A DNA stretch of 64,000 nt from a virus (taxonomy: Duplodnaviria > Heunggongvirae > Uroviricota > Caudoviricetes), in IMG/VR virus record IMGVR_UViG_3300002835_005179, positions 1-64,000 of that record. One strand, 5' to 3'. Shown here piece after piece: positions 6,085 to 33,390 of the stretch. Both the position numbers and the translations under genes were made by a program. The stretch's first letter is position 1. Each line of letters begins with the position of its first letter. The notes under the pieces were generated by a model. It was not told the DNA's origin, did not search any database, and saw nothing but the letters and a program-made list of their open reading frames with translations.

Positions 6085-7695
6085 ATGTTTGATTTTTTTG
6101 GTTTTACTATCAAGAGAAAAGGTCCGGAAGAGGAGAAAGAATTACTTTCTCCTGTTCCACCACAATCTGACGACGAAGCTACTATAGTAACTTCTAGTGG
6201 TGGTTTCGTCAACACATCGTTTAATACGGAGTTTTCTTCTTCAGATAAGAGAGTTCTGATAAACAAATATAGAGAACTTTCTCTTATGCCAGAAATCGAA
6301 TCGGCAATTGATGAAATCGTTAACGAAGCAATTGTTACCGGAGACCCAGAATCTCCGGTCGGAGTTATTTTAGACCGTCTTCCTTTTTCAGAAGATATTA
6401 AAGAAGTAATACAAGACGAATTTTCTGCAGTCTTGAATCTACTTGATTTCAATGAAAATGCTTACGAAATATTCAAAAGATGGTATATAGATGGAAGATT
6501 ATTCTTTTCAGTTGTAATTGATTCGAAGAATACAAAAGATGGTATTCAAGAACTAAGATATATTGATCCAAGAGAAATTGAAAAGATCAGAGAAGTGAAA
6601 GAAGAATTTTCTAAGCGTGGTGTGAAGTTACAAAAGACTGTACAAGAATATTATTTTTATAAAAACGATATTAAGTTACCTGCAGATTCAGTAGCATATT
6701 GTAACTCAGGATTGATTGATTATAAAAATAAAGCAACAGTAATTTCGTACTTACACAAATCAATTAAACCGTACAATCAATTGAGAATGTTAGAAGATGC
6801 TACTGTAATCTACAGGTTAGCAAGAGCTCCTGAAAGAAGAGTCTTCAAGATTGGAACTGGTGGGCTTCCAAAAATTAAAGCAGAACAATATGTAAATTCA
6901 TTGATGAATAAGTTCAGAAATAAGATTGTATATGATCAAGCAACAGGAGATCTCAGAGACGATTCAAGAACTCTATCCGTTCTTGAAGATTTCTGGATTC
7001 CAGTTGGAGAAGATGGTAAGACAACAGACATCTCTACTCTACCTGGTGGACAAAATCTCGGTGAAATGGGAGATGTGGAATACTTCCGCAAGAAATTATA
7101 TAATGCCCTACATGTCCCAATCACTAGAATTTCAGAAGGATCTACATTCAATACAGGTAGATCTGCAGAAATAGATAGAGAAGAAGTTAAGTTTAACAAA
7201 TTTATTAAAAGATTAAGAGTGAGATTCTCTTCTATCTTCACAGATCTTCTGAGAACTCAGTTAATTCTAAAGAATATTATAACTACTGAAGAATGGGATA
7301 CTTATGTGAAGAACAATATTTATTATGACTTCAGAAAAGATTCTCACTTCGCAGAATATAATGAAGCTGAAATCATGTCTAGAAGAATGGAATTGGCCTC
7401 ATCTGCAATAAGTTTAGGTGATAATTATTTCTCTGAAGATTATATTAAGAAACACTTCTTGAAGTTATCTGATGAAGAATTGAAGGAAATGGAAACAGAT
7501 AAAGAATCTGTTCCTGATGAAGAGACTCCTGTAGAACCTGAGATGGATCTAGGAATGTCGGACCTTGGTAATCCTTCTCCTGAAGAACTTCCACCATTAG
7601 AAACTCCAGAGATTTCTAACATTGAATTACCTCAACAAAATCCCTCAACAATTATAAATAAGAAAGGGAAAGAAAATGAACCTAGAAAATTTTAA
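6085..7695 (+). CDS. gp20: Portal vertex protein (gp20-like)
   Basis: 536 aa with motifs LEDATVIYRLARAPERRVF and LEDFWIPV typical of T4 gp20. Its position is syntenic. Confidence 0.85.
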   Translation: MFDFFGFTIKRKGPEEEKELLSPVPPQSDDEATIVTSSGGFVNTSFNTEFSSSDKRVLINKYRELSLMPEIESAIDEIVNEAIVTGDPESPVGVILDRLPFSEDIKEVIQDEFSAVLNLLDFNENAYEIFKRWYIDGRLFFSVVIDSKNTKDGIQELRYIDPREIEKIREVKEEFSKRGVKLQKTVQEYYFYKNDIKLPADSVAYCNSGLIDYKNKATVISYLHKSIKPYNQLRMLEDATVIYRLARAPERRVFKIGTGGLPKIKAEQYVNSLMNKFRNKIVYDQATGDLRDDSRTLSVLEDFWIPVGEDGKTTDISTLPGGQNLGEMGDVEYFRKKLYNALHVPITRISEGSTFNTGRSAEIDREEVKFNKFIKRLRVRFSSIFTDLLRTQLILKNIITTEEWDTYVKNNIYYDFRKDSHFAEYNEAEIMSRRMELASSAISLGDNYFSEDYIKKHFLKLSDEELKEMETDKESVPDEETPVEPEMDLGMSDLGNPSPEELPPLETPEISNIELPQQNPSTIINKKGKENEPRKF

Positions 7696-8068
7696 GCAAG
7701 CATATGTAAAGACAATATCGGAATCAACAGATGATTCGGATCTCACGAATTATATCAGATCTATTGTAGAAGAAGCGGTAACTGAAGGCAAACTATCTAG
7801 TTTAGCGAAAACGGCGGTCGGACGTTTAGGGAAAATGGCTGGGATTGGATCAAAAAACGAACCAAATTTTGGCTTCAAACCAAAAGACAAAGTTGGTACT
7901 CCAAAAGAACAAGAACAAGCCATGGAACAATTAGATAATATTAGAAATTATTTTATGGAGATAGATGATTTACTAAGAATATTAGATACCAAAATCAAGA
8001 ATGAATACATTGATGACTTTATTGATGAATTCAATGAGTTACTCGTAGATCTTAAATCATTAAAATAA
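7676..8068 (+). CDS. Prohead-core-position protein (130 aa) with N-terminal MNLENFKQAY leader
   Basis: Occupies the gp67/68 position between portal and protease. Its N-terminus is shared with ORFs 13070 and 30000. Confidence 0.45.
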   Translation: MNLENFKQAYVKTISESTDDSDLTNYIRSIVEEAVTEGKLSSLAKTAVGRLGKMAGIGSKNEPNFGFKPKDKVGTPKEQEQAMEQLDNIRNYFMEIDDLLRILDTKIKNEYIDDFIDEFNELLVDLKSLK

Positions 8069-8705: not shown

Positions 8706-8974
8706 TGCTTAACGAAAAAACAGTTAAGATGGGTCAGAAAATCCGCTACGATAGGGTTCGTGGCGGTAAGATTCAACGTAAGAAGATTAAATCTGCTAAA
8801 GCAGGATATAGAGTTTCTGGTAAAAAATTAGTTAGAATGAATCCCGCTGAAAAAAGAAAACGAGCAATATCTGCTAGAAAAGCGTCAAGAAAAAGAGCAG
8901 CAAAATTATCATCAATCTTAAAGAAAAGAAAGATCTCAATTAAAAAAGGTAAAAGAGCAGGAATATACAAATGA
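8705..8974 (+). CDS. Highly basic Lys/Arg-rich protein (89 aa), possible internal/core DNA-binding protein
   Basis: Extreme K/R content. Overlaps its neighbours through TAATG and ATGA junctions and lies just upstream of the prohead protease. Confidence 0.5.
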   Translation: MLNEKTVKMGQKIRYDRVRGGKIQRKKIKSAKAGYRVSGKKLVRMNPAEKRKRAISARKASRKRAAKLSSILKKRKISIKKGKRAGIYK

Positions 8975-9612
8975 AACTATTAACAGAAGTAAATGAATTC
9001 ATAAAAATTGTTTCAGAATCTGCTGAAGGTAAACCAAAAGATTATTTTATTGAAGGTATTTTCATCCAATGCGAGAAGCCAAATAGAAATAATAGAGTAT
9101 ATAAGATGGAATATATGCAACCAGAAGTAGATCGTTATGTTGAAGAATACGTCAACAAGAATAGAGCTTTTGGTGAATTAGGTCATCCAGATAATCCTAC
9201 AATTAATCTAGATAGAGTATCGCATCTTATTACTGTTCTAGAACAAAAAGGTAATGATTATATCGGTAAAGCAAAAGTTCTAGATACACCAAACGGAAAG
9301 ATTGTTAAAGCATTTATCGATGGTGGTTGTATGTTAGGTGTTTCTACTAGAGGATTAGGTTCTCTTCAACAAGAAAAGTCTTTTTCTATGGTTCAACCAG
9401 ATTACAAAATTATGACTGCCGCAGATATTGTTGCTGATCCATCTGCGCACGAAGCATTTGTGGAAGCTGTTATGGAATCAAAAGAATGGGTTTGGAATAA
9501 TGGAATTGTGAAGGAAGTAACTATTGATTCATATAAGAAGAAGCTAACAACATCAAAAAGATTACAAGAAGATAAGATTGCCATTTTTACAGACTTTCTT
9601 TCGAGATTGTAA
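8971..9612 (+). CDS. gp21: Prohead core protease (gp21-like)
   Basis: Motifs FGELGHPD and GVSTRGLGS are typical of the T4 gp21 family. Position is syntenic. Confidence 0.85.
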   Translation: MKLLTEVNEFIKIVSESAEGKPKDYFIEGIFIQCEKPNRNNRVYKMEYMQPEVDRYVEEYVNKNRAFGELGHPDNPTINLDRVSHLITVLEQKGNDYIGKAKVLDTPNGKIVKAFIDGGCMLGVSTRGLGSLQQEKSFSMVQPDYKIMTAADIVADPSAHEAFVEAVMESKEWVWNNGIVKEVTIDSYKKKLTTSKRLQEDKIAIFTDFLSRL

Positions 9613-9649: not shown

Positions 9650-10801
9650 ATGGAAAACAAACAAGATCCATTTGATTCAATCTTCGAAGGCATCGATCTT
9701 CCGGAAGATTTTGCTGCTAAGTTGAAGAAAGCATTCGACGATGCAGTTGATGAAAAATTAAAACAAGCAACTAAAGGTGTTATGAAAACTGAAGAGGAAG
9801 AGGAGATTGTTCATCTAGAATCCGAAGGTGAGATGGAAGATGATGAGGAAGAAGTTGTAGAACAAGACGAATCTAAAACATATTCTCTTGAAGATATCAG
9901 AGCACTATTAACTGATATCGATATCGTCAGATTACTACAATCTTCAGACGTAGAAAGAACAAAATTCTTAAATTCTATGCGTGCTGCAGTTACAGATCTA
10001 TCTGGCAACAGTATAGCAGAACCGTTCTTATCTCTAGTCATGAGTATTATACAAGTGATCGCAGATGATTCTAGAATTTCTACTATGATTGCAAGAGAAC
10101 TTAAAGATATGGAAACTGAGAAAAGCTCAGAAGAGCCAGCTGATAACATGAATCAAGTTAAAGTTAATGCTGAACTTGAAGTTTATGAAAATGTTATCGA
10201 ATCAGTAGATAAGTATCTAACTTATGTTGCTGAATCGTGGATCGAAGAAAACGCTCTAGCTGTTGAACAAGGTCTAAAGATTGAGATCATGGAATCTTTC
10301 TGGAATGGATTAAAGACTCTATACGTCGAAAATAATATTGTTCTACCAGAAGAAATTAATGTTGTTGAAGATCTAAATACAAAAATTGCCGATCTAGAAT
10401 CAACTCTTTCTGAGGAAAAGCAAGCATTTGCTGAAGAATTATCTAAGCAAAAGGCTCAATATGAAGAAAAGATAAACGAAGAAATTAATAGATCAATTGT
10501 ATACAAAAACAAAGCAGAAGAATCTACTAAGAAAGCTGTATTTGAATCAGTTTCAAAGGATCTATCTCTTTCACAAAAAGAAAGATTTGCGAAGTTAACA
10601 GAATCTGTAACTTATGAATCAAAGAAATCTTACGAAGAAAAGTTGAAAGATATTGTTAAGAATGCGTTCGATTCTTCTAAACCAAAGAAGAAATTGACCG
10701 AAGAATCAATGATTGAAGTATCTGAAGAAAATACAATTATTTCTGAAGATCCTATCATGAACCTTTATTCTCAAGCAATTTCTAAGAATGTCAAGTTTTA
10801 A
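9650..10801 (+). CDS. gp22: Prohead scaffolding protein (gp22-like)
   Basis: 383 aa, very acidic, with coiled-coil-type composition. Lies between the protease and the major capsid gene. Confidence 0.7.
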   Translation: MENKQDPFDSIFEGIDLPEDFAAKLKKAFDDAVDEKLKQATKGVMKTEEEEEIVHLESEGEMEDDEEEVVEQDESKTYSLEDIRALLTDIDIVRLLQSSDVERTKFLNSMRAAVTDLSGNSIAEPFLSLVMSIIQVIADDSRISTMIARELKDMETEKSSEEPADNMNQVKVNAELEVYENVIESVDKYLTYVAESWIEENALAVEQGLKIEIMESFWNGLKTLYVENNIVLPEEINVVEDLNTKIADLESTLSEEKQAFAEELSKQKAQYEEKINEEINRSIVYKNKAEESTKKAVFESVSKDLSLSQKERFAKLTESVTYESKKSYEEKLKDIVKNAFDSSKPKKKLTEESMIEVSEENTIISEDPIMNLYSQAISKNVKF

Positions 10802-10844: not shown

Positions 10845-12104
10845 ATGTCTAATCTACAAAACAAATGGAAAGCGATTCTGGAACACCCAGAAGCTGCTCC
10901 AATTAAGGACGCTTACAGAAAGCAAGTAACTGCAGTTCTTTTAGAAAACCAAGAAAAGGCTCTAGCAGAATCAAGAAAGATCATCACTGAATCTGGTGTT
11001 CCATCAAACGTTGCAGGAAACGTTGATAAGTTTGATCCAATTCTAATTGCTCTAGTTCGTAGATCTATGCCAAATCTAATGGCTTATGATATCTGCGGCG
11101 TTCAGCCAATGAACATGCCAACAGGTTTGATCTTCGCAATGAAGTCAAAGTATGGTTCAGGCGCAACTGGTCCTCTATCTTCAACTGAAGCTCTATTCAA
11201 TGAAGCAGATACTGACTTCTCTGGAACTGGTACTCACCAAGATAATATCTTTAGAACTTCTTCAGATACACTATCTACTTATGGTACTGGTATGGCAACT
11301 GCAGACGGCGAAGGTTTCTCACCACTAAACATGGGTTTCTCTATCGAGAAGGTAACAGTTACTGCAAAGACTCGTGCTCTAAAGGCAGAATACTCTCTAG
11401 AATTGGCACAAGACCTAAAGGCTATGCACAATCTAGATGCAGAATCTGAGCTATCTAACATCCTATCAACTGAAATCATGGCAGAAATCAACCGTGAAGT
11501 TATCAGAACTCTATACAAGATTGCAAAGTCTGGTGCATCTTCTGGTACAACTACAGCAGGTTATTTCGATCTTGATACAGATTCTGACGGACGTTGGTCA
11601 GTTGAAAGATTCAAGGGTCTAATGTTCCATGCTGAAAGAGAAGCAAACCAAATTGCAAAGGCAACTCGTAGAGGAAAGGGTAATATCATTATCTGCTCTT
11701 CTGACGTAGCATCTGCTCTAGCAATGGCAGGCAAGCTAGATTATACTCCAGCTCTATCTACTGATCTAAACGTCGACGATACTGGTAATACATTTGCTGG
11801 TGTTCTAAACGGCAAGTACAAGGTCTATGTTGATCCATACTTCGCAGTAGGTTCTGGCGTAACATTCTCTGACGTCATGGTTGTTGGGTACAAGGGATCT
11901 AACGCTTATGACGCTGGTTTATTCTACTGCCCATACGTTCCATTACAAATGGTCAAGGCAGTTGATCCAGATACATTCCAGCCAAAAATAGGTTTCAAGA
12001 CCCGCTACGGCATGGTCGCAAACCCACTATCTGGCGACGGAAACACTCTAGGTGCAGCTTCCAACGATTATTATAGACTCGTCAAAATTAAAAATATTCT
12101 CTAA
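10845..12104 (+). CDS. gp23: Major capsid protein (gp23-like)
   Basis: 419 aa. The N-terminal propeptide-like region and the block VRRSMPNLMAYDICGVQPM are typical of T4 gp23. Confidence 0.9.
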   Translation: MSNLQNKWKAILEHPEAAPIKDAYRKQVTAVLLENQEKALAESRKIITESGVPSNVAGNVDKFDPILIALVRRSMPNLMAYDICGVQPMNMPTGLIFAMKSKYGSGATGPLSSTEALFNEADTDFSGTGTHQDNIFRTSSDTLSTYGTGMATADGEGFSPLNMGFSIEKVTVTAKTRALKAEYSLELAQDLKAMHNLDAESELSNILSTEIMAEINREVIRTLYKIAKSGASSGTTTAGYFDLDTDSDGRWSVERFKGLMFHAEREANQIAKATRRGKGNIIICSSDVASALAMAGKLDYTPALSTDLNVDDTGNTFAGVLNGKYKVYVDPYFAVGSGVTFSDVMVVGYKGSNAYDAGLFYCPYVPLQMVKAVDPDTFQPKIGFKTRYGMVANPLSGDGNTLGAASNDYYRLVKIKNIL

Positions 12105-13069: not shown

Positions 13070-13327
13070 ATGAACCTAGAAAATTTTAAAGAAGCTTATT
13101 TAACAGTTATTAATGAAGAAATTGAAGAGACCGAAGTAGTCGAAACAGAAGTAACTGATGTCGATGAAGAAACACCTGAAAACGAATTATCTGCAGCAGA
13201 TCATTTTAAGATGGGTGTTATGGCTTTGATGGGTAAGATGGATGCTTCCGAAGAAGAGAATGAAATGATCAATGATTTGGTTGCATCAATCATTTCAGAT
13301 CTTAACGATTCAATGTCTGGTGATTAA
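13070..13327 (+). CDS. Small acidic protein (85 aa) with MNLENFKEAY leader
   Basis: The first 20 nt are identical to the start of ORF 7676. Confidence 0.45.
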   Translation: MNLENFKEAYLTVINEEIEETEVVETEVTDVDEETPENELSAADHFKMGVMALMGKMDASEEENEMINDLVASIISDLNDSMSGD

Positions 13328-16913: not shown

Positions 16914-17790
16914 ATAAACTATCCAATTCTTCTTTCGCAATTTCAGCCATCCAATCAATAACGTCAATAACTTCGACATTATCAGAAATACCAGACTCTG
17001 TGAAAGAATTTGTTGTGTAGATCTTATCAAAGTATTTCGATAGATCATCGAATCCTTTCGAGAAGATTCCGTGTGTCACAAACAACCGAAGATTTGGGAT
17101 CTGCAACTTTTCAGCAATACCCAAGAAAGTTCCACCACCATCACAGATATCGTCGATGATATAAGAATTTCGTGTCGTGTCTTTGATTACTGGAACTTCG
17201 AAACCAAGAAATCTGCCAGTAACAGGATCACGTTTCTTTTTGCAGTAATATTTCGGATGATTATCGGAAAGCATATCAGCATATCTATTCTTCGCACCTT
17301 CATCCGGAAAGATAATATTTGCTTCAGGATCAGTTACAAGAATTTCTTGAATAATCTTATTAATCGGAATATCTTTATACTCATAATCAAACCTGTTAGA
17401 ATGACAATCTAAAGTATAGATTTTTGCATATGGCCAGACGCAGGTAATGATATTCAAGAAAACTTTCTTACCGAGACAATCTCCTTCTACGAAGCGACGA
17501 TCGGCTCTTGAATATGGAAGATAAGGAATCACAACAGCAATATTATTGGATGGCATAGACAAAGTAATATCGTTGATTGCATCTTGCAACAGAAGCAACT
17601 TCATTACATCATCGGAATTCTTAATTCGATGAATTAAGACAACACCAAAACACGAAGTCAATGCTTTGATAGTTTCGGGTTTGAGGCGAACCTGAAGTTC
17701 GCCTCCTGGATACTTAAACCACTCGTACGAATTTTCGTCGATACGCAATACATTACGATTGGACACGAACACGCTCCTTAATGGTTTCAA
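16906..17790 (-). CDS. prs: Ribose-phosphate pyrophosphokinase (PRPP synthetase)
   Basis: PRPP-binding loop IIDDICDGGGTF and length 294 aa. Confidence 0.8.
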   Translation of the reverse strand: MKPLRSVFVSNRNVLRIDENSYEWFKYPGGELQVRLKPETIKALTSCFGVVLIHRIKNSDDVMKLLLLQDAINDITLSMPSNNIAVVIPYLPYSRADRRFVEGDCLGKKVFLNIITCVWPYAKIYTLDCHSNRFDYEYKDIPINKIIQEILVTDPEANIIFPDEGAKNRYADMLSDNHPKYYCKKKRDPVTGRFLGFEVPVIKDTTRNSYIIDDICDGGGTFLGIAEKLQIPNLRLFVTHGIFSKGFDDLSKYFDKIYTTNSFTESGISDNVEVIDVIDWMAEIAKEELDSLYV

Positions 17791-19228: not shown

Positions 19229-19279
19229 AATTAACCTTTCTTTATTCATTATACTAAATATAGAATCAGAAAGCAAGCT

Positions 19280-20421: not shown

Positions 20422-20607
20422 ATGAAGAAATCAATTTACAAAAGAAATATTGGGTCTAGGTCTTGGTCTGGGTCTAGGTCTTGGTCTTGGTCTGGGTCTT
20501 GGTCTGGGTCTTGGTCTGAGTCTAGGTCTAGGTCTGAGTCTAGGTCTAGGTCTGAGTCTAGGTCTGGGTCTGGGTCTGGGTCTTGGTCTTGGTCTAGGTC
20601 TAACTAA
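20422..20607 (+). CDS. Ser-Xaa dipeptide-repeat small protein, copy 1 (61 aa)
   Basis: Leader MKKSIYKRNIG, then (S-[RWGE])n encoded by (TCTNGG)n, ending RSN-TAA 4 nt before the next ATG. Confidence 0.5.
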   Translation: MKKSIYKRNIGSRSWSGSRSWSWSGSWSGSWSESRSRSESRSRSESRSGSGSGSWSWSRSN

Positions 20608-20611
20608 AAAT

Positions 20612-20854
20612 ATGATAAAGAAATCAATTTACAAAAGAAATATTGGGTCTTGGTCTAGGTCTGGGTCTAGGTCTGGGTCTGAGTCTAGGTCTGAGTCTTG
20701 GTCTTGGTCTGGGTCTGAGTCTAGGTCTGAGTCTGGGTCTTGGTCTAGGTCTTGGTCTGAGTCTTGGTCTAGGTCTGGGTCTGGGTCTAGGTCTAGGTCT
20801 AGGTTTAGGTCTGGGTCTAGGTCTAGGTTTAGGTTTAGGTCTGGGTCTAACTAA
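20612..20854 (+). CDS. Ser-Xaa dipeptide-repeat small protein, copy 2 (80 aa)
   Basis: Leader MIKKSIYKRNIG plus the repeat, ending GSN-TAA. Confidence 0.5.
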   Translation: MIKKSIYKRNIGSWSRSGSRSGSESRSESWSWSGSESRSESGSWSRSWSESWSRSGSGSRSRSRFRSGSRSRFRFRSGSN

Positions 20855-20858
20855 AAAT

Positions 20859-21083
20859 ATGATAAAGAAATCAATTTACAAAAGAATTATTTGGTCTAGG
20901 TCTGGGTCTGAGTCTGGGTCTAGGTCTTGGTCTGAGTCTGGGTCTTGGTCTTGGTCTTGGTCTTGGTCTGAGTCTTGGTCTGGGTCTAGGTCTTGGTCTG
21001 GGTCTGGGTCTTGGTCTTGGTCTGGGTCTGAGTCTGGGTCTTGGTCTAGGTCTAGGTCTGGGTCTAGGTCTGGGTCTAACTAA
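20859..21083 (+). CDS. Ser-Xaa dipeptide-repeat small protein, copy 3 (74 aa)
   Basis: Leader MIKKSIYKRIIW plus the repeat, ending GSN-TAA. Confidence 0.5.
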   Translation: MIKKSIYKRIIWSRSGSESGSRSWSESGSWSWSWSWSESWSGSRSWSGSGSWSWSGSESGSWSRSRSGSRSGSN

Positions 21084-24145: not shown

Positions 24146-24220
24146 GCGCTTGTAGCATAATGGTAATGTAGAAGATTCTAAACCTTCGAGATGAGAGTTC
24201 GATTCTCTCCAAGCGCACCA
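24146..24220 (+). tRNA. tRNA with anticodon CUA (amber suppressor type), CCA encoded
   Basis: - Acceptor stem GCGCTTG/CAAGCGC.
- D arm GCAT-AATGGTA-ATGT.
- Anticodon stem GAAGA/CCTTC with one A-C mismatch, loop TT-CTA-AA.
- Variable region GAGAT.
- T arm GAGAG-TTCGATT-CTCTC.
- Discriminator A followed by CCA. Confidence 0.8.
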
Positions 24221-24270: not shown

Positions 24271-24492
24271 TTGATTTTTCACTTCAATAAGAAACATCTT
24301 GAAGATCCTTCCATTCCAATGTGGTCGATCAAAGCAAAAGGTGAAACTTATTATGTGAAGCATGTAGATTGTGCTCTACCATGGAGCACAAAAGAAACTC
24401 CTGATAATCCTCATACAAAAGGATCTATCAAAATCAAAAATTGTACTTTGACAATAGACTATCTAGATAATGCTTATATAACGGGAGAGTAA
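24271..24492 (+). CDS. Hypothetical protein (73 aa, TTG start)
   Basis: Track ORF with conserved-looking PWSTKETPDNPHTKGS. An alternative ATG exists at 24319. Confidence 0.45.
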   Translation: MIFHFNKKHLEDPSIPMWSIKAKGETYYVKHVDCALPWSTKETPDNPHTKGSIKIKNCTLTIDYLDNAYITGE

Positions 24493-24512
24493 AATCTCCC
24501 GTTTCATTTTTT
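24482..24512 (+). terminator. Rho-independent terminator
   Basis: CGGGAGA-gtaaaa-TCTCCCG followed by TTTCATTTTTT. Confidence 0.7.
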
Positions 24513-24520
24513 TATAAATA
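24513..24520 (+). promoter_or_regulatory. T4-type late promoter TATAAATA
   Basis: Exact TATAAATA 20 nt upstream of the ATG at 24540. Heads the 24.5-33.3 kb operon. Confidence 0.6.
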
Positions 24521-24539: not shown

Positions 24540-24770
24540 ATGTTCACAATTAATTCAGCAACCAATCCTAATGATCGAAATCTTAATAATTATTATCTAA
24601 AACATTTTAAAAATAATAATAAATTGTCTCAAGAATTGAAGAAACAAATAACACCAAAACTTATTTCTGATGCTATCAAAGAAGCAATATCACAATCAAA
24701 AAAAACCAAGGACAAGGGATATAAATTAGAATTCACAATCGACGGTATAAAACCCGTAGAGGAACAGTAA
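24540..24770 (+). CDS. Hypothetical protein (76 aa)
   Basis: Track ORF, first gene after the late promoter. Joined to the next gene by a TAATG overlap. Confidence 0.5.
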   Translation: MFTINSATNPNDRNLNNYYLKHFKNNNKLSQELKKQITPKLISDAIKEAISQSKKTKDKGYKLEFTIDGIKPVEEQ

Positions 24771-25762
24771 TGTTATCTTTTAAATCTTTTCTTATACTAG
24801 AAGGTGGCGTCGGGGGCCACATGGCGCATGTTTTTGACATATCTTCAACTGGAAAAGAATTGATTGGAGTATTTAAGGAAGCAATCAAATTCATCAATTC
24901 TGGTAAGACATCTGTTAAGATAGATGGAATCAATGCTTCACTTCGTTTGGTTGAAGGAAAATTTGTTCTAGATCGTGGTTCGGCAAAGCCTTTGGATATT
25001 AAAGGAATTCGTCCAGAAGATTTGGAAGATAGATTTGGACAAGGACATGGATTTGTTGAAAAAGGAAAGAAGATAATTGACATTTTTGACACAGCTTATC
25101 CGAAAATTAAGCCAGAATTGGAGAAACTTGGTCTTTTAAATAATCCTAATATCTTATTCAATACTGAGTATGTTGAAGGTAAGACTAATGTTGTTCAATA
25201 TGAAGGAATCGATAATTTCTTAGCAATCCATGGATTAAAAGAAATTAAGGTTAATAAGACAAATCCAAAGACTGGCGTTGTTACATCAAGAGTAGCTTCC
25301 AATATTTCATTCGATCAAACAACAATGGCTTCTCTTATCAAGAAATTAGATGAAGTTGCAAAAGCTTTTGGATTTAAAGTTCTCGGTAATGTTGGTGTAA
25401 CATTCAAAGAGAACCCTGATTTAACCAAGGTTTTATCAGAAGAGATTACTCTAAACGAACAAACTAAAACGCTTGGAGAATGGTTATCTAATCTGACATT
25501 TAAGACTCCTCTAATTACAAGAGCAAAATTCATCCAAATTATGAACTCAGATAAGAAAGATCTTACTGAGAAACAACTTACAGATTATCTAGTTTATATT
25601 GCAACTATTCGCCTTGGTGATGAAATTCTTAATAGTTCAACTTCAGATCTAGGCGATCTTAAAGGTCAAGAAGGAATCGTCATAAGAAGATCTGATAATT
25701 CTTTATACAAAATAACTGGATCGTTTATTCTTCGTGGATTAGAATCTACATTTGGAAAGTAA
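24770..25762 (+). CDS. Ligase-like nucleotidyltransferase candidate with capsid-targeting-like N-terminus
   Basis: N-terminus MLSFKSFLILE. Candidate motif I VKIDG, motif III FNTEYVEG, motif IV QEGIVIRR and motif V LYKITGSF. The assignment is inferred from motifs only. Confidence 0.45.
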   Translation: MLSFKSFLILEGGVGGHMAHVFDISSTGKELIGVFKEAIKFINSGKTSVKIDGINASLRLVEGKFVLDRGSAKPLDIKGIRPEDLEDRFGQGHGFVEKGKKIIDIFDTAYPKIKPELEKLGLLNNPNILFNTEYVEGKTNVVQYEGIDNFLAIHGLKEIKVNKTNPKTGVVTSRVASNISFDQTTMASLIKKLDEVAKAFGFKVLGNVGVTFKENPDLTKVLSEEITLNEQTKTLGEWLSNLTFKTPLITRAKFIQIMNSDKKDLTEKQLTDYLVYIATIRLGDEILNSSTSDLGDLKGQEGIVIRRSDNSLYKITGSFILRGLESTFGK

Positions 25763-25763
25763 T

Positions 25764-27926
25764 ATGTCTAAGAAATATTTCGCACGTCTATCTAAGTCTA
25801 CAGCTACTAAAAGAAAAACATTCTGGAAGAAACTTGGTTCTTATCCGTTCACTAAAGATGAGTATGATCGTGCGGAAAAAGTTCCTGGAGATGCGAAGTC
25901 TGAGACAAGACCATCGCAATATAATAAGAAGTATAGAGAAATGTATGAAGCAGTACATAATGAAGCTCCTTATCTAAAATGGGGTATTATTTCTCCAACT
26001 GGTAAAGTTATTTCTGGCGATGAATATAAAAGTAGTGATAATTTGAATCATGCATCATTTCTTGTCAGACTTGGGTTAGAAAAAGAATACGATCTAAATG
26101 GGAAAAATTCGAACTATTCAAGATATGCTATTTTGAAGGATGTCTATGGATTAACCTCAATAATAACCATACCAGGTCGTGCAAAAATTGATTCTGTTAT
26201 AAAAGCATGGAAAAATATTCCGATGGGAGATGATATATTAATCTTACTTAGTAAGTATAATGATGATGAATATGAAGGTCCTTCATCTAAAGCTCTATCG
26301 TGGTTAAAACAATATAAATCAAAAGTACAAGAAGAATATGACGAAATCAGTGAATCCAGATCAATCAAGGCGCTTCAAAAGAAAGCAAAAGCTTCTGGTG
26401 TTCCTTATTCTATCTTGAAGCGAGTTTATAATCGTGGTATGGCTGCTTGGGTTACAGGACACAGACCAGGTGCAACACAATCTGCTTGGGCATTTGCAAG
26501 AGTCAATTCGTTCCTAACAAAAGGAAAGACTTGGTATGGGCCAGATGCAGATCTCGCGAAGAAAGCAAGAAAGTATCTACAAGAAGCTCATTTTATACCA
26601 CAATATTTTGATTGGGGCTGGATTGATGATCGTGGAAATATTCAATATCCAGAAGAGCATGATAGAACACATACATCTATTCTAAGAAGATTAACAGAAA
26701 AACAACCTGAATATAATTTGGGCGATAGGCCAACAGAAACTGATGCAACAAAACAAGGTTGGATTCGTTGGGTAGTTGAATACAGCAATTCTGAATTTGT
26801 TTTATTTTTCAATACAAAGAAATTGATTAAAACGATAAAGATGTATAGATCTATAGAAAATATTGTAAATAAACATAAAGATTCGTCATATATTTCATTT
26901 GATTTGCCTAGAAAATTTATACAATCTAGAACGAGGAACGAATTCATGTTAGAGCTATCTAAGGTATTTGGAATAAAAGAAGATCAAGATTACGAAATAG
27001 AAATGATTTCTGGACAATTAAAGAAAATTATAGATCTATCTACAGATACCTTGAATATTATCCAGAATCAGTCAGAAATTCCTGCATGGATTCAAGATAA
27101 GATCTCAGTTTCTACTCATAACGCAGAAGCAATATTTGATTACTACAATTATTCGGAAGAAAAGATTCAAGAAGAAACGCAGATGAAGAAAGTTGTCATA
27201 TTTCCAGGTGGTTTCCATCCATTCCATAAAGGCCATTATTCGGTTTATACTGCAATCAAAAAGAAATTTCCAGATGCAGATGTATATGTTGCTTCAACAA
27301 ACGAACAAACCGAAAGACCATTTTCATTTGAAGATAAAAAATATCTAGCAAGTCAACTAGGAGTTCCTGAGAAATCATTCGTTGAAGTAAAGATTCCATA
27401 TGTTGCTACAGAGATTACACGGAAATATGATAAAAAGAATACGATAGTTATCTTTGCTATTTCTGGAAAAGATCCAGATAGAATCTCTTACACAAAGAAA
27501 GATGGTACACCAGGATACTTTGCAGAATGGACTGGTGAAAATGTCGAACCATTTGAATCAAAAGGATATATCTTTATTACACCAAAGGTAGATTTTAAGA
27601 TTGCAGGTAAACAAGTTGATTCTGCTTCAATGATTAGAAAAATGTATAAAGAAGCTGATGATTCAGAAAAGAATCAAATTATCAAAGATATGTATCCTGG
27701 TGGTGATGTCAAAAATATTAAAAAAATCTTAGACAATAATTTGATAGATTCTACACAAGAATCAGTAGAAATTATTTCTGAAACTATCAGATGCAGTAAG
27801 AAGACTGGTAAGAATATCTGTTTCGTATTCTCTAAAAAGGGTAAGAAGATGGGTGGTCCATATTCTGAAACGAAAGCCAAGAAAAGACTCAGACAAATTG
27901 AATTCTTCAAACATTTAAATAAATAA
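25764..27926 (+). CDS. Multidomain protein: two WGWI-type repeats, an RGMAAW..GHRPG..ARVNSF domain, and a C-terminal NMN-adenylyltransferase-like (GxFxPxHxGH) domain
   Basis: Start is the ATG at 25764 (track uses TTG at 25752). The C-terminal region has PGGFHPFHKGH and VDSASMIR, matching cytidylyltransferase/NMNAT signatures. Confidence 0.6.
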   Translation: MSKKYFARLSKSTATKRKTFWKKLGSYPFTKDEYDRAEKVPGDAKSETRPSQYNKKYREMYEAVHNEAPYLKWGIISPTGKVISGDEYKSSDNLNHASFLVRLGLEKEYDLNGKNSNYSRYAILKDVYGLTSIITIPGRAKIDSVIKAWKNIPMGDDILILLSKYNDDEYEGPSSKALSWLKQYKSKVQEEYDEISESRSIKALQKKAKASGVPYSILKRVYNRGMAAWVTGHRPGATQSAWAFARVNSFLTKGKTWYGPDADLAKKARKYLQEAHFIPQYFDWGWIDDRGNIQYPEEHDRTHTSILRRLTEKQPEYNLGDRPTETDATKQGWIRWVVEYSNSEFVLFFNTKKLIKTIKMYRSIENIVNKHKDSSYISFDLPRKFIQSRTRNEFMLELSKVFGIKEDQDYEIEMISGQLKKIIDLSTDTLNIIQNQSEIPAWIQDKISVSTHNAEAIFDYYNYSEEKIQEETQMKKVVIFPGGFHPFHKGHYSVYTAIKKKFPDADVYVASTNEQTERPFSFEDKKYLASQLGVPEKSFVEVKIPYVATEITRKYDKKNTIVIFAISGKDPDRISYTKKDGTPGYFAEWTGENVEPFESKGYIFITPKVDFKIAGKQVDSASMIRKMYKEADDSEKNQIIKDMYPGGDVKNIKKILDNNLIDSTQESVEIISETIRCSKKTGKNICFVFSKKGKKMGGPYSETKAKKRLRQIEFFKHLNK

Positions 27927-27941
27927 CGATAAGGAAAGAAA

Positions 27942-29990
27942 ATGAAAAATTTTTCACAAATACGAAACGAAATCAATATCCAAAATAAATCTTTATTGAC
28001 TGAAGAATCACAGTTATTCGGATTAGATGAAACACATTTAATTGAGTCGATAGATATTCTATCTAAGAATTTAATTCTAGCTTCTCTGATTACAGAACAG
28101 ATTTCTGATTCAGAAATTAAAGAGATTGTCGATTCAATTCCACTAGATGTAGATAAATTAGAAGATTATATGATTCAAACCAAGAACAATATTGTAATTG
28201 TTAATTGGGATGGATCAAAAGCTTCTGTAGAAGTAGACGGAAAGGAAATTGATATTCCTGGTGTTGTAAATAATCCTGAAGCTCTGCGTGGTGCTGTTGA
28301 AGGAATTCTTCAAGATTATCCTATGTCTGAAGAAGTTACACAAGATGATTTGGCAGATGTTCTATATAATATTCCAACAGATACAAAAGAGTTAATTGGT
28401 AAAGAATTTGATATAAATGGCGATAAGTTATCTGTAGACTGGAATTCGGAAACAGGATCTGTAAAAGTTTCTTTGAATGGAAAATCTATTGATATTAATG
28501 ATAAAGCTTATGATTTGGATACATTGGCACAAGCAATTATGAAGGCTGTTGGATCAGATTCTAAAGAAAAAGAAGAACCAAAGAAAGATGATAAGCCTGT
28601 AACTGATCCTGAAACGAAGAAGAAACTGGCAGTACTTAATACAATAATCAAACCAAGATTAATTTACAAATATGCAAATACAAGTACAGATAGAAATAGA
28701 GTAATTGCAGCTCTAACTGATTATATTAAAACTGGTTCAGATGAATCAAAGACAACTGCCGATTTAGATCAAAGAGCTCTAGTTGATCTCTTATTCGATT
28801 TAGTTGATGTATTAGTTACAAATAGAAATCTAGCAACTCTAGTTACAAAGAATGCAACAGCTGCTTCAGTTTCTGAATCTGTTATTCTTGAAGCAAAGAA
28901 GAAATCAAAGAAGAAGCCGCCTACAGAAGAAGGTGTCGATGTTAAGTTAGATATGCTTTTGAAACTTGGTCTTGTTGATCAGAAGTTGTATAATAGAGCA
29001 AAGAAAGCTCTTTCAAATAAGAAAGCAGCTGGAACAGTTCCTTATTTAAGAAATCTTCTATTTGATTTATTGGATAGATTAATTTCTTATATCAAGAAAG
29101 ATCCTACTCTATATAATAGAATTAGAATCAACGTCATGAAAGAAATGAAAGGAATTCTTCCAACAAAGAAAGATCTTGATGAAGCATCATGTGCTGGAAA
29201 GAAAGCTGCCGAAGAAGGTAAGGGAAAAGAAGTCCCTGAATCATATTCAAGACACTACTTCACAAAAGAAGCTTGGTTAGAAGGTTTCGATTCTTGGGAT
29301 GGAACTATAACTAATATTAATTCGGAAGAGGAAGAAATGAAAACATTCAAAGAATTTAATGAAACATTCAAAGAAGAACAAGAAACAAATGAATCGGTAA
29401 AGTTATCTGAATTAAATGTTATTAATGATGTTATAAATGGATTGGAGATCTTATCAACAACTCCTTTTGCAAATCTAGAAGAAGCTGAGAGCGAAATTAA
29501 ATCTCTATTAGGAACTATCGGTTTGTCATTTGATAATCTTGAAGATGGCGAGATTCCTTTAGATTCAATTGACGGCGAAAATGCAGTTCTTTCTGTATTT
29601 TCTGCAGACGAAACGGTAGAAGATGAATTGGAAGGAGATATGGTTTTAAAATGTTCCATTTCTGAAGGAGAATCTGGTGTAACAGTTTCTGCTGAAATTA
29701 TGGTTTACTTCGAAGATGGAGAAGCAGTTGCATTGACTGACGTTGAATTTGAAGTAGAGAAAGAAGATGGCGAGGAAGCCGAAGACGAAATGGAAGATAA
29801 TCTAGAAGAAGAATTTGAAACTGGTAAAGTCTTTAACGTCATCTTATTCAAGCCAACCACAAGAAGATTCTTATCTTCAATTATCCACGCAAACTCAGTA
29901 GAAGAAGTTGAGAAGATTGTTTCAGAAGAAATGCCTTTGTATGTAGTTCACTCAATTAATCCTATTGAAGTAACAGATACAACTAAATAA
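27942..29990 (+). CDS. Large acidic hypothetical protein (682 aa)
   Basis: Long uninterrupted ORF with ribosome-binding site AAGGAAAG. N-terminus MKNFSQIRNE is CTS-like. Confidence 0.55.
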   Translation: MKNFSQIRNEINIQNKSLLTEESQLFGLDETHLIESIDILSKNLILASLITEQISDSEIKEIVDSIPLDVDKLEDYMIQTKNNIVIVNWDGSKASVEVDGKEIDIPGVVNNPEALRGAVEGILQDYPMSEEVTQDDLADVLYNIPTDTKELIGKEFDINGDKLSVDWNSETGSVKVSLNGKSIDINDKAYDLDTLAQAIMKAVGSDSKEKEEPKKDDKPVTDPETKKKLAVLNTIIKPRLIYKYANTSTDRNRVIAALTDYIKTGSDESKTTADLDQRALVDLLFDLVDVLVTNRNLATLVTKNATAASVSESVILEAKKKSKKKPPTEEGVDVKLDMLLKLGLVDQKLYNRAKKALSNKKAAGTVPYLRNLLFDLLDRLISYIKKDPTLYNRIRINVMKEMKGILPTKKDLDEASCAGKKAAEEGKGKEVPESYSRHYFTKEAWLEGFDSWDGTITNINSEEEEMKTFKEFNETFKEEQETNESVKLSELNVINDVINGLEILSTTPFANLEEAESEIKSLLGTIGLSFDNLEDGEIPLDSIDGENAVLSVFSADETVEDELEGDMVLKCSISEGESGVTVSAEIMVYFEDGEAVALTDVEFEVEKEDGEEAEDEMEDNLEEEFETGKVFNVILFKPTTRRFLSSIIHANSVEEVEKIVSEEMPLYVVHSINPIEVTDTTK

Positions 29991-29999
29991 GGGAATAAC

Positions 30000-30287
30000 A
30001 TGAATTCATTTACTAAAGCATATATGGAAGTCCTCAACGAAGGTACCTTCTTGATGGGACAAGATACAACTCTTGCAGATATCTTAAAGGAAACTAAGTT
30101 TGAAGATTTTTCTAAATCAGATTTTGATGCATTTGCTGGTGTGGAAACAGATAATCCTGTTATAGGAACATATAAAGATTATCAGATAATCATAGATGGT
30201 AATGACATTATATTGATATCTGATAATGAAGAATCAGCTGGTTTTTCTCAAAAGATCTTTTCGTTGAAGTTACAATCAACCATTTAA
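30000..30287 (+). CDS. Small acidic protein (95 aa), MNSFTKAYMEVLNE leader
   Basis: Track ORF. N-terminus is related to ORFs 7676 and 13070. Confidence 0.45.
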   Translation: MNSFTKAYMEVLNEGTFLMGQDTTLADILKETKFEDFSKSDFDAFAGVETDNPVIGTYKDYQIIIDGNDIILISDNEESAGFSQKIFSLKLQSTI

Positions 30288-30676
30288 TGATTCTAAATTT
30301 AACAAAAGACAATATTAAATTATATGCAGCCAGTGTTTACCAAAATCCTGGCTGCGCTTCGTCTTTAGAATTTGAAGAGGATTATCTTCGAATCAAATAT
30401 CTGAAGACGATTTTATATAAATATCTAAATAACAAGAGTATAAATATTCGTATTTTGTTAAATCATATTATTTGTATACAGAATGTTTTTCCTGGAGAAG
30501 CAACTGCTAAGATCTTATTCGTTGTGTTTTCTGAATCTTCGTGGAATGCATTAGCAACAATCTTGATCTATTTGTCTTTGATGCCTCCAGAAATTAGAGG
30601 AATAACGGGAAAAACGATTACTCTATCATCAATATCTATAGACAATAATCTATTAGAAAAATTAAAGGAACTATGA
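30287..30676 (+). CDS. Hypothetical protein (129 aa)
   Basis: Track ORF, joined to its neighbours by a TAATG junction upstream and an ATGA overlap downstream. Confidence 0.45.
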   Translation: MILNLTKDNIKLYAASVYQNPGCASSLEFEEDYLRIKYLKTILYKYLNNKSINIRILLNHIICIQNVFPGEATAKILFVVFSESSWNALATILIYLSLMPPEIRGITGKTITLSSISIDNNLLEKLKEL

Positions 30677-31584
30677 TGTTACTAGAAGGCGTTTACGGAA
30701 GTTTCAAATTAACTGAAGATTCAGCAAATAAGTTAACTGAATGGATAAAAGATAACAATGTTATAGAACCTGTTGAAGATGAAGATTTACATATCACAAC
30801 AACATACTCAAAGGTAGATCCGAAACAAGAAATAACTCCTTCCGAAAAGAACAATATCAGATTAGATCATAAAGAATTTTCTATAGCAACATATGGTCGG
30901 GCTTTGGTTATTGAAGTGGAATCGAAAGATCTCGAAACAATTCATAAATCAGCAATAGATTCTGGCGCTTCTTATGATTACGAAACTTATAAACCGCACA
31001 TAACCATTTCTTATAATGCAGAAGCAAACGAAAACATAATTCCTCTTCTATTTCCTCCAGATTTTGATATCGTTCTTTCTCATGAAGAAGTAGAACCTCT
31101 AAATTATAATTTTTGGGGTTGGATTAAGCCTGATGGTTCTCTTCTTCTTCCAACAGAAAAGATGAGGTACTCTTATAATGAGTATTCACACATAGATGTA
31201 TTAAAAAAACAACAAAAATCAATTTCTAGTTATGACGCAGCATATAAATTGAATTATATTCGTTTCTATGTAGAAACGGCATTAGATCGCCTTGTTTTTG
31301 ATTGTCCAAACACAGTTCCTGCTTCTATTGTTGAAAAAGGATACAAGAATATTCTATATTATGTCAGAACTAAACAATTCAAATTTTATATAAAAAAGAA
31401 AAAAGGTCGTAACGAAACTCATGATTTTGAAACAATTGATAGTGGCAATTCTTTACAAGAATTGCTTGCCAAATTGGTGAAGCTGCAGGAATCAGATGCA
31501 CCCGCCAATTCAACAGCAAATATTGCTACTTATGCAAAACCAATGACATTTAAGATGTTTAAAAGAAAAATGGATTTGAAATAG
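30673..31584 (+). CDS. 2H phosphoesterase (LigT/CPDase-like) fused to a WGWI-type C-terminal domain
   Basis: Two HxT/S motifs (LHITTTYS and PHITISYN), then NFWGWIKPDGS, which is related to the repeats in ORF 25764. Ends in TAG. Confidence 0.6.
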   Translation: MMLLEGVYGSFKLTEDSANKLTEWIKDNNVIEPVEDEDLHITTTYSKVDPKQEITPSEKNNIRLDHKEFSIATYGRALVIEVESKDLETIHKSAIDSGASYDYETYKPHITISYNAEANENIIPLLFPPDFDIVLSHEEVEPLNYNFWGWIKPDGSLLLPTEKMRYSYNEYSHIDVLKKQQKSISSYDAAYKLNYIRFYVETALDRLVFDCPNTVPASIVEKGYKNILYYVRTKQFKFYIKKKKGRNETHDFETIDSGNSLQELLAKLVKLQESDAPANSTANIATYAKPMTFKMFKRKMDLK

Positions 31585-31591
31585 GTGTTTT

Positions 31592-31966
31592 ATGGACAAG
31601 GGTTTAGAACAAATGGAAAAAGACGTCCAAGAAATTAAAGTTCAAGTAGAACTTGTCAAGAAAGACATTCAACAATTCCAAAAAGTAGTGGATAAACTAG
31701 ACACAACAAACGATAAAATTCAAGAGTTGATTAATAACATAACAACCATCACAACACAACATCAACAAAAAATAGTTGACTCGGAAACGAATTCTAAGTA
31801 TATCTGGGAAGAAATTGCTGATGTTAAAAAACAAATTGCTTCCGAGAAAAAAACTATAGAAGAAAGATTAACTGATTTAGAAAAATCAAAGTGGATGTTA
31901 ATTGGTGGTGTATCTTTCTTAACTCTATTGATGAATATTGTTTCTACTTTTGTAAAGAGTAATTAA
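31592..31966 (+). CDS. Coiled-coil protein with C-terminal transmembrane anchor (124 aa)
   Basis: Heptad-like charged region followed by WMLIGGVSFLTLLMNIVSTFV. Confidence 0.5.
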   Translation: MDKGLEQMEKDVQEIKVQVELVKKDIQQFQKVVDKLDTTNDKIQELINNITTITTQHQQKIVDSETNSKYIWEEIADVKKQIASEKKTIEERLTDLEKSKWMLIGGVSFLTLLMNIVSTFVKSN

Positions 31967-33286
31967 ATGAAATCCTTCAAACAATTTCTTATTGAAAACG
32001 AATTATCTATTGGTAAATGGGAAATTATTGCCTCAACTGAAAGAAGAAGAAAGTATGCTGAAAATCTATTCGATCTAGTTCAAACAGCATATAAGGACAC
32101 ACCATATGGTTCATTTATTAAAACTGTAGATAATGTAATTAATGGTATTAAGAATGAAACAGATCCAACAAAACCACCGACAATTTCAGATTGGCAAGTA
32201 ATTAATCTAGACTCAGATCCATATGCAGAAGCCACAGTATTCTATAGAAAAAATAGATCAGATGAAACTTGGATTGGAAATAAGATACAAGGTATAGGAC
32301 ATGATGGAAGATATCATAATAGAATTAAATCATCTCAGTATGCTGTAGAAAAGATTGTTGAATTGATTAATGAAGAGGGTTGGTGGATAGAAGTTTCAGA
32401 TGCGTTGAAATACATTTTATTTAAAAGATATAATGGAAAATTTCCTGTTGTTTCTGATGTTGTGTTTTTGAGAAAATTATATAATGATCCAACTCTTGAA
32501 ATGATTGATGAAGTTACATACACTAGAGATATTGGTAGTGGAAGAATCCAGGAATCTACCCTGGGAAAACCTGTTCTTAAGATGAAAGAAGAATCTCTAG
32601 ATGAAGGTCTTTCGGATTGGTTGAGGAATATTGTGCTCGCTGCTGGTCTATTCGCTTCGGGGGAGCAGGGTGCAGAAGCAAAAAGAATAACAGTTTATCC
32701 TGATGGTAAGGCAATTTATACTGATACAGGAAAACCAGTAATCAATAAATTACCCAAACTACAATCTACAAAGAATATATTATTAAATGTCAAAGCAGAT
32801 ACTCCTGATGAAAGAAAGAAACTTTTGAATAAGATGGCGATTGCTTCTGGAATAAAAGGAAACGAGTTAGAACATTTTATTGCACAAGCTAGTCATGAAA
32901 CATTAGATTTCTCGAAGCTTGAAGAAATTGGTTCTAATAATAAATTTGAATTAAAATATGGTCCGAATTCTAGAATAGGAAAAAAATTAGGTAACGATAC
33001 CAAAGGTGATGGGGCGAAATTCAAAGGACGTGGTTTCTTACAATTAACAGGTAAGTATAATTATGAGAAGATTGGTAAGATATTAAATCTAGATCTTGTT
33101 TCTAATCCTAATATGATTTCTAAGTATCCTGGTGTTGCAGCTGCTACTGCTATTGCTTATTGGAAATGGAGAGTTAAACCTAATGTTAAATCTTTCGCAA
33201 CAAAAGATACAGTTTCGAAAGTTACTAAGCAAATCTCCGGATCTAGTAAAGAAAAACATATAGATAGAAGAAAACCAAAAAAGTAG
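31967..33286 (+). CDS. Glycoside hydrolase family 19 (lysozyme/chitinase-like) protein with capsid-targeting-like N-terminus
   Basis: N-terminus MKSFKQFLIENE. C-terminal AQASHETLDF..GDGAKFKGRGFLQLTGKYNY..AYWKW matches the GH19 catalytic core. Ends in TAG. Confidence 0.7.
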   Translation: MKSFKQFLIENELSIGKWEIIASTERRRKYAENLFDLVQTAYKDTPYGSFIKTVDNVINGIKNETDPTKPPTISDWQVINLDSDPYAEATVFYRKNRSDETWIGNKIQGIGHDGRYHNRIKSSQYAVEKIVELINEEGWWIEVSDALKYILFKRYNGKFPVVSDVVFLRKLYNDPTLEMIDEVTYTRDIGSGRIQESTLGKPVLKMKEESLDEGLSDWLRNIVLAAGLFASGEQGAEAKRITVYPDGKAIYTDTGKPVINKLPKLQSTKNILLNVKADTPDERKKLLNKMAIASGIKGNELEHFIAQASHETLDFSKLEEIGSNNKFELKYGPNSRIGKKLGNDTKGDGAKFKGRGFLQLTGKYNYEKIGKILNLDLVSNPNMISKYPGVAAATAIAYWKWRVKPNVKSFATKDTVSKVTKQISGSSKEKHIDRRKPKK

Positions 33287-33306
33287 TTTTATAGGAAATG
33301 GTAAGT

Positions 33307-33390
33307 ATGAAATCATTTAAATCGTTCGTAACGGAAAAGAAATTTGCAGATCTTAAACCAACAAAAGGTAAATGGGCAAACTTATCATAA
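33307..33390 (+). pseudogene. 27-codon remnant paralogous to the N-terminus of ORF 31967
   Basis: MKSFKSFVTEKKFADLKPTKGKWANLS compared with MKSFKQFLIENELSIGKWEII. Confidence 0.35.

Follow-up and report, generated by a model that had tools for sequence, protein, structure and literature searches.

The stretch of DNA analysed here (the window; 64,000 nucleotides, positions 1 to 64,000 of the IMG/VR record IMGVR_UViG_3300002835_005179) belongs to a marine T4-like myovirus of about 33% G+C. Its major capsid protein, gp23, is only about 40% identical to that of T4 and finds its nearest cultured relatives in Pelagibacter phage HTVC008M (63%) and Methylophilales phage Melnitz (62%). We examined an array of genes running from 24540 to 33390, all co-directional and separated by gaps of 0-20 nt, in which several open reading frames (ORFs) begin with a short leader resembling the capsid-targeting sequence (CTS) of T4, MKTYQEFIAE. 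Comparison of the 24770-33390 region with cultured phages by megablast gave no DNA-level match. The array comprises the following features.

24480..24503 (+): intrinsic-terminator-like hairpin and T-run closing the upstream unit (9-bp stem with 5 GC pairs, then TCATTTTTTT)
24513..24520 (+): TATAAATA, the T4 late-promoter consensus, at the head of the array and directly after the terminator
24540..24770 (+): first ORF of the array, 76 amino acids (aa), without leader or family match
24770..25762 (+): 330-aa RNA-ligase-like covalent nucleotidyltransferase, leader MLSFKSFLILE, conserved domain from EGGVGGHM
25764..27926 (+): 720-aa protein with DUF5824 and an NMNAT-like cytidylyltransferase domain, without leader in this lineage, with leader in its cyanophage homologues
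27942..29990 (+): acidic protein of 682 aa with a weak leader, MKNFSQIRNE, an L-T-E at residue 21 and an acidic C-terminal module beginning at residue 466
29337..29363 (+): leader MKTFKEFNE, in frame inside the 682-aa ORF and opening the acidic module, preceded by the Shine-Dalgarno-like GAGGAAGAA
30000..30287 (+): 95-aa ORF with a second leader type, MNSFTKAYMEVLNE; the homologue in contig L003 starts MQNNKLSLTETYLDIIRE
30287..30676 (+): DUF7207 protein, a conserved locus marker (E 3.5e-28; synteny)
30673..31584 (+): Acb1 (T4 57B)-like anti-CBASS phosphodiesterase domain (PF23474, E 9.4e-29) with a C-terminal extension, without leader
31592..31966 (+): coiled-coil protein (DUF7201) that has a hydrophobic segment at its C-terminus; its annotation in cyanophage S-SCSM1 is 'holin-like'
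31967..33286 (+): 439-aa protein made of leader MKSFKQFLIE, a GNAT-like domain (about 20-205), a linker and a GH19 domain (about 284-436)
33307..33390 (+): remnant, 27 aa long, of a cassette gene with a leader (MKSFKSFVTEKKFADLKPTKGKWANLS), matching the N-terminus of P0127, MLSFRNYIKEAKFSDLNPKKGEWKNI

All four N-termini that an earlier note on this DNA had quoted as CTS-like are in place: MLSFKSFLILEGG for the 24770 ORF (leader at 24770-24802), MKNFSQIRNEI for 27942, MKSFKQFLIENE for 31967 (leader at 31967-31996) and MKSFKSFVTEKK for 33307, whose 27-aa ORF stops at 33390. The pattern M[KL][STN][FY][KQSE].[FI] was tested on the 892 ATG-initiated ORFs of at least 20 aa found on both strands of the window. 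Five matched, all of them on the + strand between 24770 and 33307, within 8.6 kb, and their starts share M-[KL]-[STN]-F-x-x-[FI]. The fifth match, absent from the earlier list, starts within the 682-aa ORF, at an in-frame Met at 29337 (MKTFKEFNE).

In T4, suppressor-substitution analysis of the CTS assigned targeting mainly to residues 4 and 7, and processing to residues 8 and 10 (PMC9026906). The targeting pair reads F4 and F7 in 24770, 31967, 33307 and the internal leader at 29337, and F4, I7 in 27942; F4, F7 and L8 lie on one helix face. At the processing positions, an aliphatic P3 and a P1 Glu, 31967 has L-I-E, so that F4, F7, L8 and E10 are all kept. The 33307 leader has V8 and E10 (V-T-E), and 24770 has L8 and I-L-E, shifted by the one extra residue that precedes its Glu. 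The 29337 leader carries F-N-E at the cut position. The description of these starts as close analogues of the T4 CTS is correct for 24770, 31967 and 33307, but 27942 is a weak case, with I7 and an Arg at P3. Its R-N-E at position 10 departs from the processing rule; the L-T-E at residue 21 fits better, and the protein and its homologues have L-x-E-E near that residue. Judged on these residues, both the leader of 27942 and the cut proposed for it are in doubt.

The earlier note had accepted that orthologues lacking the leader would count against its proposal. Homologues of 24770 keep it, and the proposal survives this check. Orthologues at 57-95% identity retain the leader (for instance MLSFKQFLIEGG and MLSFRQFLTEGG), and a more distant clade reads MIKLNNILNEVIQEGG. 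F4, F7 and L8 are kept, the Glu at P1 never changes, L, I or V stands at P3 in nearly all of them, and P2 is variable. As to the enzyme itself, K50, D52 and G53 of motif I (SVKIDG) are invariant in 37 homologues, as are E301, G302 and V304 (EGIVIRR) and K314 (YKITG). The AlphaFold2 model has a predicted local distance difference test score (pLDDT) of 89 and a predicted template modelling score of 0.84; residues 1-15 fall below pLDDT 50 and form a helix at 4-11, detached from the confident fold. Foldseek ranks 1-40 in the PDB are all RNA or DNA ligases (T4 Rnl1 with a probability of 0.99, Rnl3, Rnl2, Rnl5 and DNA ligases), the matches being weak (E 1.4e-3, template modelling score, TM, 0.25-0.33). 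No Pfam or PHROG match was found, a profile search of PDB sequences gave nothing meaningful, and a scan of viral contigs for ligase-like relatives found none. The earlier identification of a ligase-like nucleotidyltransferase, made from its KIDG motif, holds, with invariant motifs and a ligase-superfamily fold that Foldseek matches weakly, and the predicted structure suggests that 24770 is best described as a divergent RNA-ligase-like nucleotidyltransferase.

The leader was then sought in other phages with a degenerate DNA pattern for MKSFKQF, scanned in IMG/VR. At least 119 loci matched, against 17 for a permuted peptide, and nearly all were true ORF starts. Among the matches listed, 102 of the 119 loci have T4-like core genes, which share 40-60% identity with their counterparts in the window; the leader is specific to T4-like phages. 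At least 36 unrelated cargo families begin with MKSFKQF, among them cytidylyltransferase/DUF5824 proteins, a Phage_lysozyme protein, an ART-PolyVal ADP-ribosyltransferase and DUF6934-like proteins. The Glu, which the search did not constrain, is residue 9 in 19 of the families and residue 10 in the other 17. In many contigs the cyanophage gene between portal and protease, the gp67/gp68 prohead-core position, starts with MKSFKQF. Among 123 leader occurrences there are 44 distinct 21-mers, and synonymous positions vary freely, which indicates that selection acts on the peptide and not on the DNA; a recombination or RNA element at the nucleic acid level was rejected for the same reason. A full-text search of the available papers for MKSFKQF or close variants returned none and turned up only the T4 CTS, whose role as a general device of T4-like phages had already been suggested (PMC9026906).

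The leader also occurs inside proteins. An exhaustive HMMER search with the whole 682-aa protein showed that its acidic module exists elsewhere as a stand-alone protein with the leader at its start (e.g. MKTFKEFKEE, MKSFKQLTEE); a word-index search with the C-terminal module itself had found nothing. Most fusions keep the Met and the leader internally, the exception being L003, with KSFKEFNE and no Met. In one homologue the internal leader reads MKTYKEFISE, identical to the T4 CTS at 8 of 10 positions. Since GAGGAAGAA precedes an in-frame leader at 29337, internal initiation and internal protease cleavage are both possible: the acidic module could be freed at the internal leader (candidate junction EEEEMKTFKEFNE|T) or translated from the 29337 ATG. 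The earlier proposal of the 682-aa acidic protein as cargo gains this second leader, but the one at 27942 on which it was founded is itself doubtful.

A comparable fusion is seen in 31967. Its GH19 domain, as called in the earlier note, scores 43.9 bits with PF00182 against a Pfam cut-off of 25.5 and also matches endolysin PHROGs; AQASHETLDF and GRGFLQLTGKYNY are in the sequence, with the catalytic Glu in the SHET motif. What the earlier note missed, in presenting the protein as a GH19 muramidase-like cargo, is the GNAT-like domain, by which the protein joins two cassettes in one. GNAT enzymes make up nearly all of the top 50 Foldseek matches of that part; the matches are weak (probability at most 0.94, TMt 0.44-0.49, E at least 0.02), and the model is confident only for residues 80-205. 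QGIGHDG is conserved, corresponding to the GNAT acetyl-CoA loop Q/R-x-x-G-x-G/A, and a Pfam search of this part gave no match. The N-terminal half would be GNAT-like at fold level only. In the slot of 31967, the related contig L153 has three consecutive leader-bearing genes: a GH19 protein (MKTFKDYNSE), a DUF6934-like protein (MKTFKQYINE) and a two-domain (Y+X) protein (MLSFRNYIKE). The 31967 product corresponds to a GNAT-like domain fused to the L153-type GH19 protein minus the latter's own leader. Because 33307 matches the N-terminus of the two-domain protein, it is a truncated or decayed cassette and not a functional cargo gene.

More distant GNAT-like homologues were at one stage taken to be leaderless. 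This was revised: they lack SFKQF and start with M-(K/R)-(L/I)-x-E. In the 318-kb jumbo contig L152, four consecutive genes (7154-10619) start with MRLYELF, MRLYELY, MRLQELL and MRLQELF, two of them homologous to the GNAT-like and GH19 parts of 31967. In the huge-phage contig L001 (LR745206, 884-5106), neighbouring genes start with MKYLKxF, MKHLKAFE and MKDLKHIKLFEAFE.

The machinery that a T4-type leader would need is encoded upstream, together with small ORFs bearing the second leader type.

7676..8068 (+): 130-aa ORF at the gp67/gp68 position between portal and protease, starting MNLENFKQAYVKTISE
8971..9612 (+): gp21-type prohead protease (PF03420, E 9.7e-33; phrog_207, E 1.8e-75)
9650..10801 (+): gp22-type scaffolding core protein (PF25623 T4_CASP, E 3.2e-40)
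10845..12104 (+): gp23 major capsid protein, with I-T-E|S where T4 has its L-T-E|A maturation cut
13070..13327 (+): 85-aa acidic ORF whose leader, MNLENFKEAYLTVINE, is its sole likeness to the 7676 ORF

The gp21-type protease at 8971, which the earlier note had named, is recognised by both profiles, and (L/I)-x-E is found at the position of the T4 L-T-E|A cut in gp23 of the window, of L003 and of S-SCSM1 alike. Portal, rIIA/rIIB-like genes, gp55 (33453) and gp47/gp46 are also encoded in the window. The small proteins of 7676, 13070 and 30000, otherwise unrelated, have in common the second leader type, MNLENFK(Q/E)AY..(I/V)(S/N)E and MNSFTKAYMEVLNE. Similar starts occur in the S-SCSM1 virion proteins ORF89 and ORF92, and the 69-aa virion protein ORF93 of that phage (L126 13627-13836) has a C-terminal leader-like motif, KKKRTFKEFLEYIE.

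The array was also described in the earlier note as an operon headed by a late promoter. TATAAATA at 24513, after a terminator, and the co-directional genes agree with this, but the octamer is present only as often as chance predicts (10 copies in the window versus 8.5 ± 2.9), and enrichment was dropped as an argument since the count does not exceed chance. Its late-promoter role is deduced solely from placement, as it also stands just upstream of gp18 (3496), of the 7676 gene (7653) and of gp23 (10807). Two further TATAAATA boxes, 23 nt apart, lie at 30416-30446 (+) within the DUF7207 gene, some 230 nt before the Acb1-like gene; from their position they may form an internal late promoter. The order of the locus (ligase-like, DUF5824/cytidylyltransferase, large protein, DUF7207, Acb1, DUF7201, variable cassettes, gp55) is conserved in metagenomic relatives, Melnitz, Syn9 and S-SCSM1. 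A tRNA gene (24146-24220, +) with anticodon CTA, which reads the amber codon and is labelled tRNA-Pyl by ARAGORN, lies between the rIIB-like gene and the leader array. The T4 ipI locus is presumably likewise close to a tRNA gene and to the Acb1/57B gene.

Adjacency of the ligase-like and cytidylyltransferase genes is seen in the window (24770-27926), Melnitz, Syn9 and S-SZBM1, and the two are fused in Microcystis phage Mel-JY01 (loci L002 2299-4218, L127, L128, L154). This adjacency and the fusion suggest a shared pathway. The DUF5824 protein has two copies of a repeat of about 40 aa, WG(W/I)Ixx(D/T)Gxxx.P....H(T/A)S, and the Acb1-like protein has one, in its C-terminal extension; the repeat is also found in the large protein of L003 (13002-15662) and in P0144, P0164 and P0165.

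Leader-bearing cytidylyltransferases from this locus have been found in particles. Mass spectrometry of CsCl-purified cyanophage virions detected S-SCSM1 ORF91 (MKSFLQFLKE), S-CREM2 ORF154 (MKNFSSFLTE) and S-SZBM1_140 (MRFRQFIIE); all three come from a locus syntenic with the window array. The adjacent ligase-like protein S-SZBM1_141, which has no leader, is not mentioned in the available text of the S-SZBM1 paper, part of its detection table included. The cyanophage papers report detection alone and give no targeting signal. Comparing leaders with virion content over the whole S-SCSM1 genome was of little help, with only two genuine leader genes and one of them detected, too few cases.

These observations are best explained, with a probability that we put at about 0.65, if the locus is a cassette array of T4-style internal proteins, in which the leader brings its cargo to the scaffold, the prohead protease cuts it and the cargo is ejected with the DNA. 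The array would be transcribed late, and its products would share only an amphipathic N-terminal leader, M-K/L-S/T-F-K-x-F-φ-x-E. During prohead assembly the leader would bind the gp22-type scaffolding core; the gp21-type protease would next cut after (L/I/V)-x-E, freeing the mature protein inside the head, and the cargo would leave with the DNA at infection. By analogy with T4, the products are probably packaged and trimmed after the Glu; scaffold binding, cleavage and injection in the window phage, and any role of the cargo in the host, are steps that we infer from the same analogy. The likely cargo would be the 24770 ligase-like enzyme, the 31967 GNAT-like/GH19 fusion and the acidic C-terminal module of the 682-aa protein, to which the small proteins of 30000, 7676 and 13070, with their related leader, might be added.

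Several points weigh against this interpretation. The E-G-G that follows the 24770 leader is part of the conserved domain, and because it recurs, as I-A-E-G-G, inside the Mel-JY01 fusion, conservation of the Glu may have causes other than cleavage. F-x-E takes the place of (L/I)-x-E in about half of the MKSFKQF families, 27942 is a poor match to the leader, some small leader-bearing genes sit among replication genes, and TATAAATA is not over-represented. On the virion side, the cyanophage papers themselves warn that abundant late proteins may co-purify with particles. The other leader gene of S-SCSM1, ORF30 (106 aa), went undetected in virions, and several detected virion proteins of that phage have no leader. 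Detection, moreover, concerns cyanophages and not the window phage or a close relative.

Three other explanations were weighed. It is rather improbable, and would not exclude packaging, that 31592 and 31967 form a lysis cassette, the DUF7201 protein acting as a holin or spanin-like factor and the GH19 enzyme as an endolysin from within, without being injected. The presumed late expression, the endolysin PHROG matches of the GH19 domain and the holin-like annotation of DUF7201 in S-SCSM1 would all suit such a cassette, as would the stand-alone GH19 gene of L153, placed immediately behind DUF7201 and with a short hydrophobic stretch following its start. Yet other relatives conserve DUF7201 with no GH19 gene at this position, and the L153 enzyme has a leader of its own, MKTFKDYNSE. 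In the window GH19 is fused behind a leader-bearing GNAT-like domain, and in a jumbo-phage contig the same two domains lie side by side with another leader in common. A typical signal-anchor would be longer and less polar than the hydrophobic stretch, and for this reason a signal-anchor endolysin reading of the GH19 linker was not adopted.

Less probable still, the leader would be a favoured N-terminal sequence with no targeting role, either a start optimised for translation initiation or expression in AT-rich late genes, or a linker for recombination between shuffling cassettes. MK- starts and A-rich second codons are indeed frequent where genomes are AT-rich, the cassettes seem to be shuffled, and the huge-phage contigs have other shared N-termini. 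Against this, the free variation of synonymous positions leaves no conserved DNA or RNA element, and the leader is at least seven times as frequent as a permuted peptide of equal composition. Glu, left free in the search, is strongly enriched at the second position behind a hydrophobic residue, the leader is kept in frame inside fusion proteins, and it matches, residue by residue, the T4 CTS as defined by mutation.

That the leader directs proteins to another late assembly or site (baseplate, tail, membrane prohead initiation site or chaperone), and is not removed, is very unlikely: virion mass spectrometry is blind to position within the particle and some T4-like virion enzymes, such as S-SCSM1 ORF213 and ORF214, are baseplate proteins, but those enzymes have no leader, leader genes occupy the gp67/gp68 prohead-core position beside the protease and scaffold genes, and the conserved hydrophobic-x-Glu fits the gp21 cleavage rule, valid also for gp23.

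Capsid delivery of internal proteins is of a kind already known from the T4 CTS and internal proteins, from Alt and from the ejection proteins of giant phages. As in T4, we find a leader of about 10 residues with an aromatic residue at 4, Phe at 7, an aliphatic residue at 8 and Glu at 10, hypervariable cargo with only the leader in common, gp21 and gp22 homologues, and genes that are probably late. T4 internal proteins are small and basic, whereas the cargos here are enzymes of 200-700 aa; the consensus is MKSFKQFφxE, the leader is also found internally in fusions, and the system is described here from sequence only. Alt of T4, a head-packaged ADP-ribosyltransferase that gp21 processes and that is injected, is likewise an enzyme delivered from the capsid with the DNA, but it has another propeptide and is processed at both termini (PMC9026906). 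The window has no such enzyme; a leader-bearing ART-PolyVal protein is encoded downstream of gp23 in the related contig L076. The ejection or inner-body proteins of phiKZ and SPN3US are also head-internal and lose propeptides ending in x-E to a T4-type prohead protease, but with the consensus (S/A/G)-x-E, longer propeptides and no short shared CTS. The Dar anti-restriction proteins of phage P1 are packaged in the capsid and delivered to the host for anti-defence, in an unrelated phage and by another incorporation mechanism. The same two differences apply to gp16 of phage T7, a capsid-packaged protein whose lytic transglycosylase domain digests the cell wall. The cytidylyltransferases of cyanophage virions (S-SCSM1, S-SZBM1, S-CREM2, S-CBWM1) come closest: in the three that are T4-like, they share both the locus and the leader. 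In the window, by contrast, the cytidylyltransferase has no leader and the neighbouring ligase-like protein has one.

The "unusual injected toolkit" of the earlier note is less unusual than supposed, being a local version of a cassette system that marine T4-like phages have in common. What is apparently new is the recognition of the tag in marine T4-like phages, the breadth of its enzyme cargo, the internal copies in fusions and the link to unexplained virion enzymes. We raise tentatively, as an idea that may well prove wrong, that marine T4-like phages (cyanophages, pelagiphage-like and methylophage-like) share a portable capsid-delivery tag that pre-loads an interchangeable enzyme kit, made of NMNAT-like NAD synthesis, RNA-ligase-like repair, acetyltransferase-like enzymes, ADP-ribosyltransferases and cell-wall hydrolases, and that internal leaders turn fusions into polyproteins split in the head by the prohead protease. 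If this idea holds, the kit would enter with the DNA before phage gene expression, and could counter NAD-depleting and RNA-cleaving defences and help to cross the wall; the likely cargo points to counter-defence in the first minute, through NAD supply, RNA repair and protein modification. Three cyanophage studies left open whether the cytidylyltransferase/NMNAT-like enzymes of virions are truly carried; a T4-type leader would supply a mechanism, which existing mass-spectrometry data could test. The leader would also make it possible to predict which proteins abundant ocean phages deliver with their DNA, and might serve as a ready tag for loading foreign proteins into T4-like capsids other than those of coliphages.

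Some features elsewhere in the window may be mentioned. A set of NAD salvage genes is present at 16906-19249 (-) and 25764-27926 (+); it encodes NAMPT (PF04095, E 6.9e-36), a fragment resembling ribose-phosphate pyrophosphokinase and the NMNAT-like cytidylyltransferase domain. An ORF of homing-endonuclease type (12247-13056, +), in which GKxHSEE(S/T)(K/R)RKMS units are repeated, has been inserted between gp23 and the gene at 13070. Small paralogous ORFs, six or seven in all, lie at 20422-21083 (three, +) and 46453-47275 (three or four, -). Most start with MIKKSIYK(R/K)xI, followed by runs of S-W, S-G, S-R and S-E dipeptides, and they may be either coding genes or repeat DNA.

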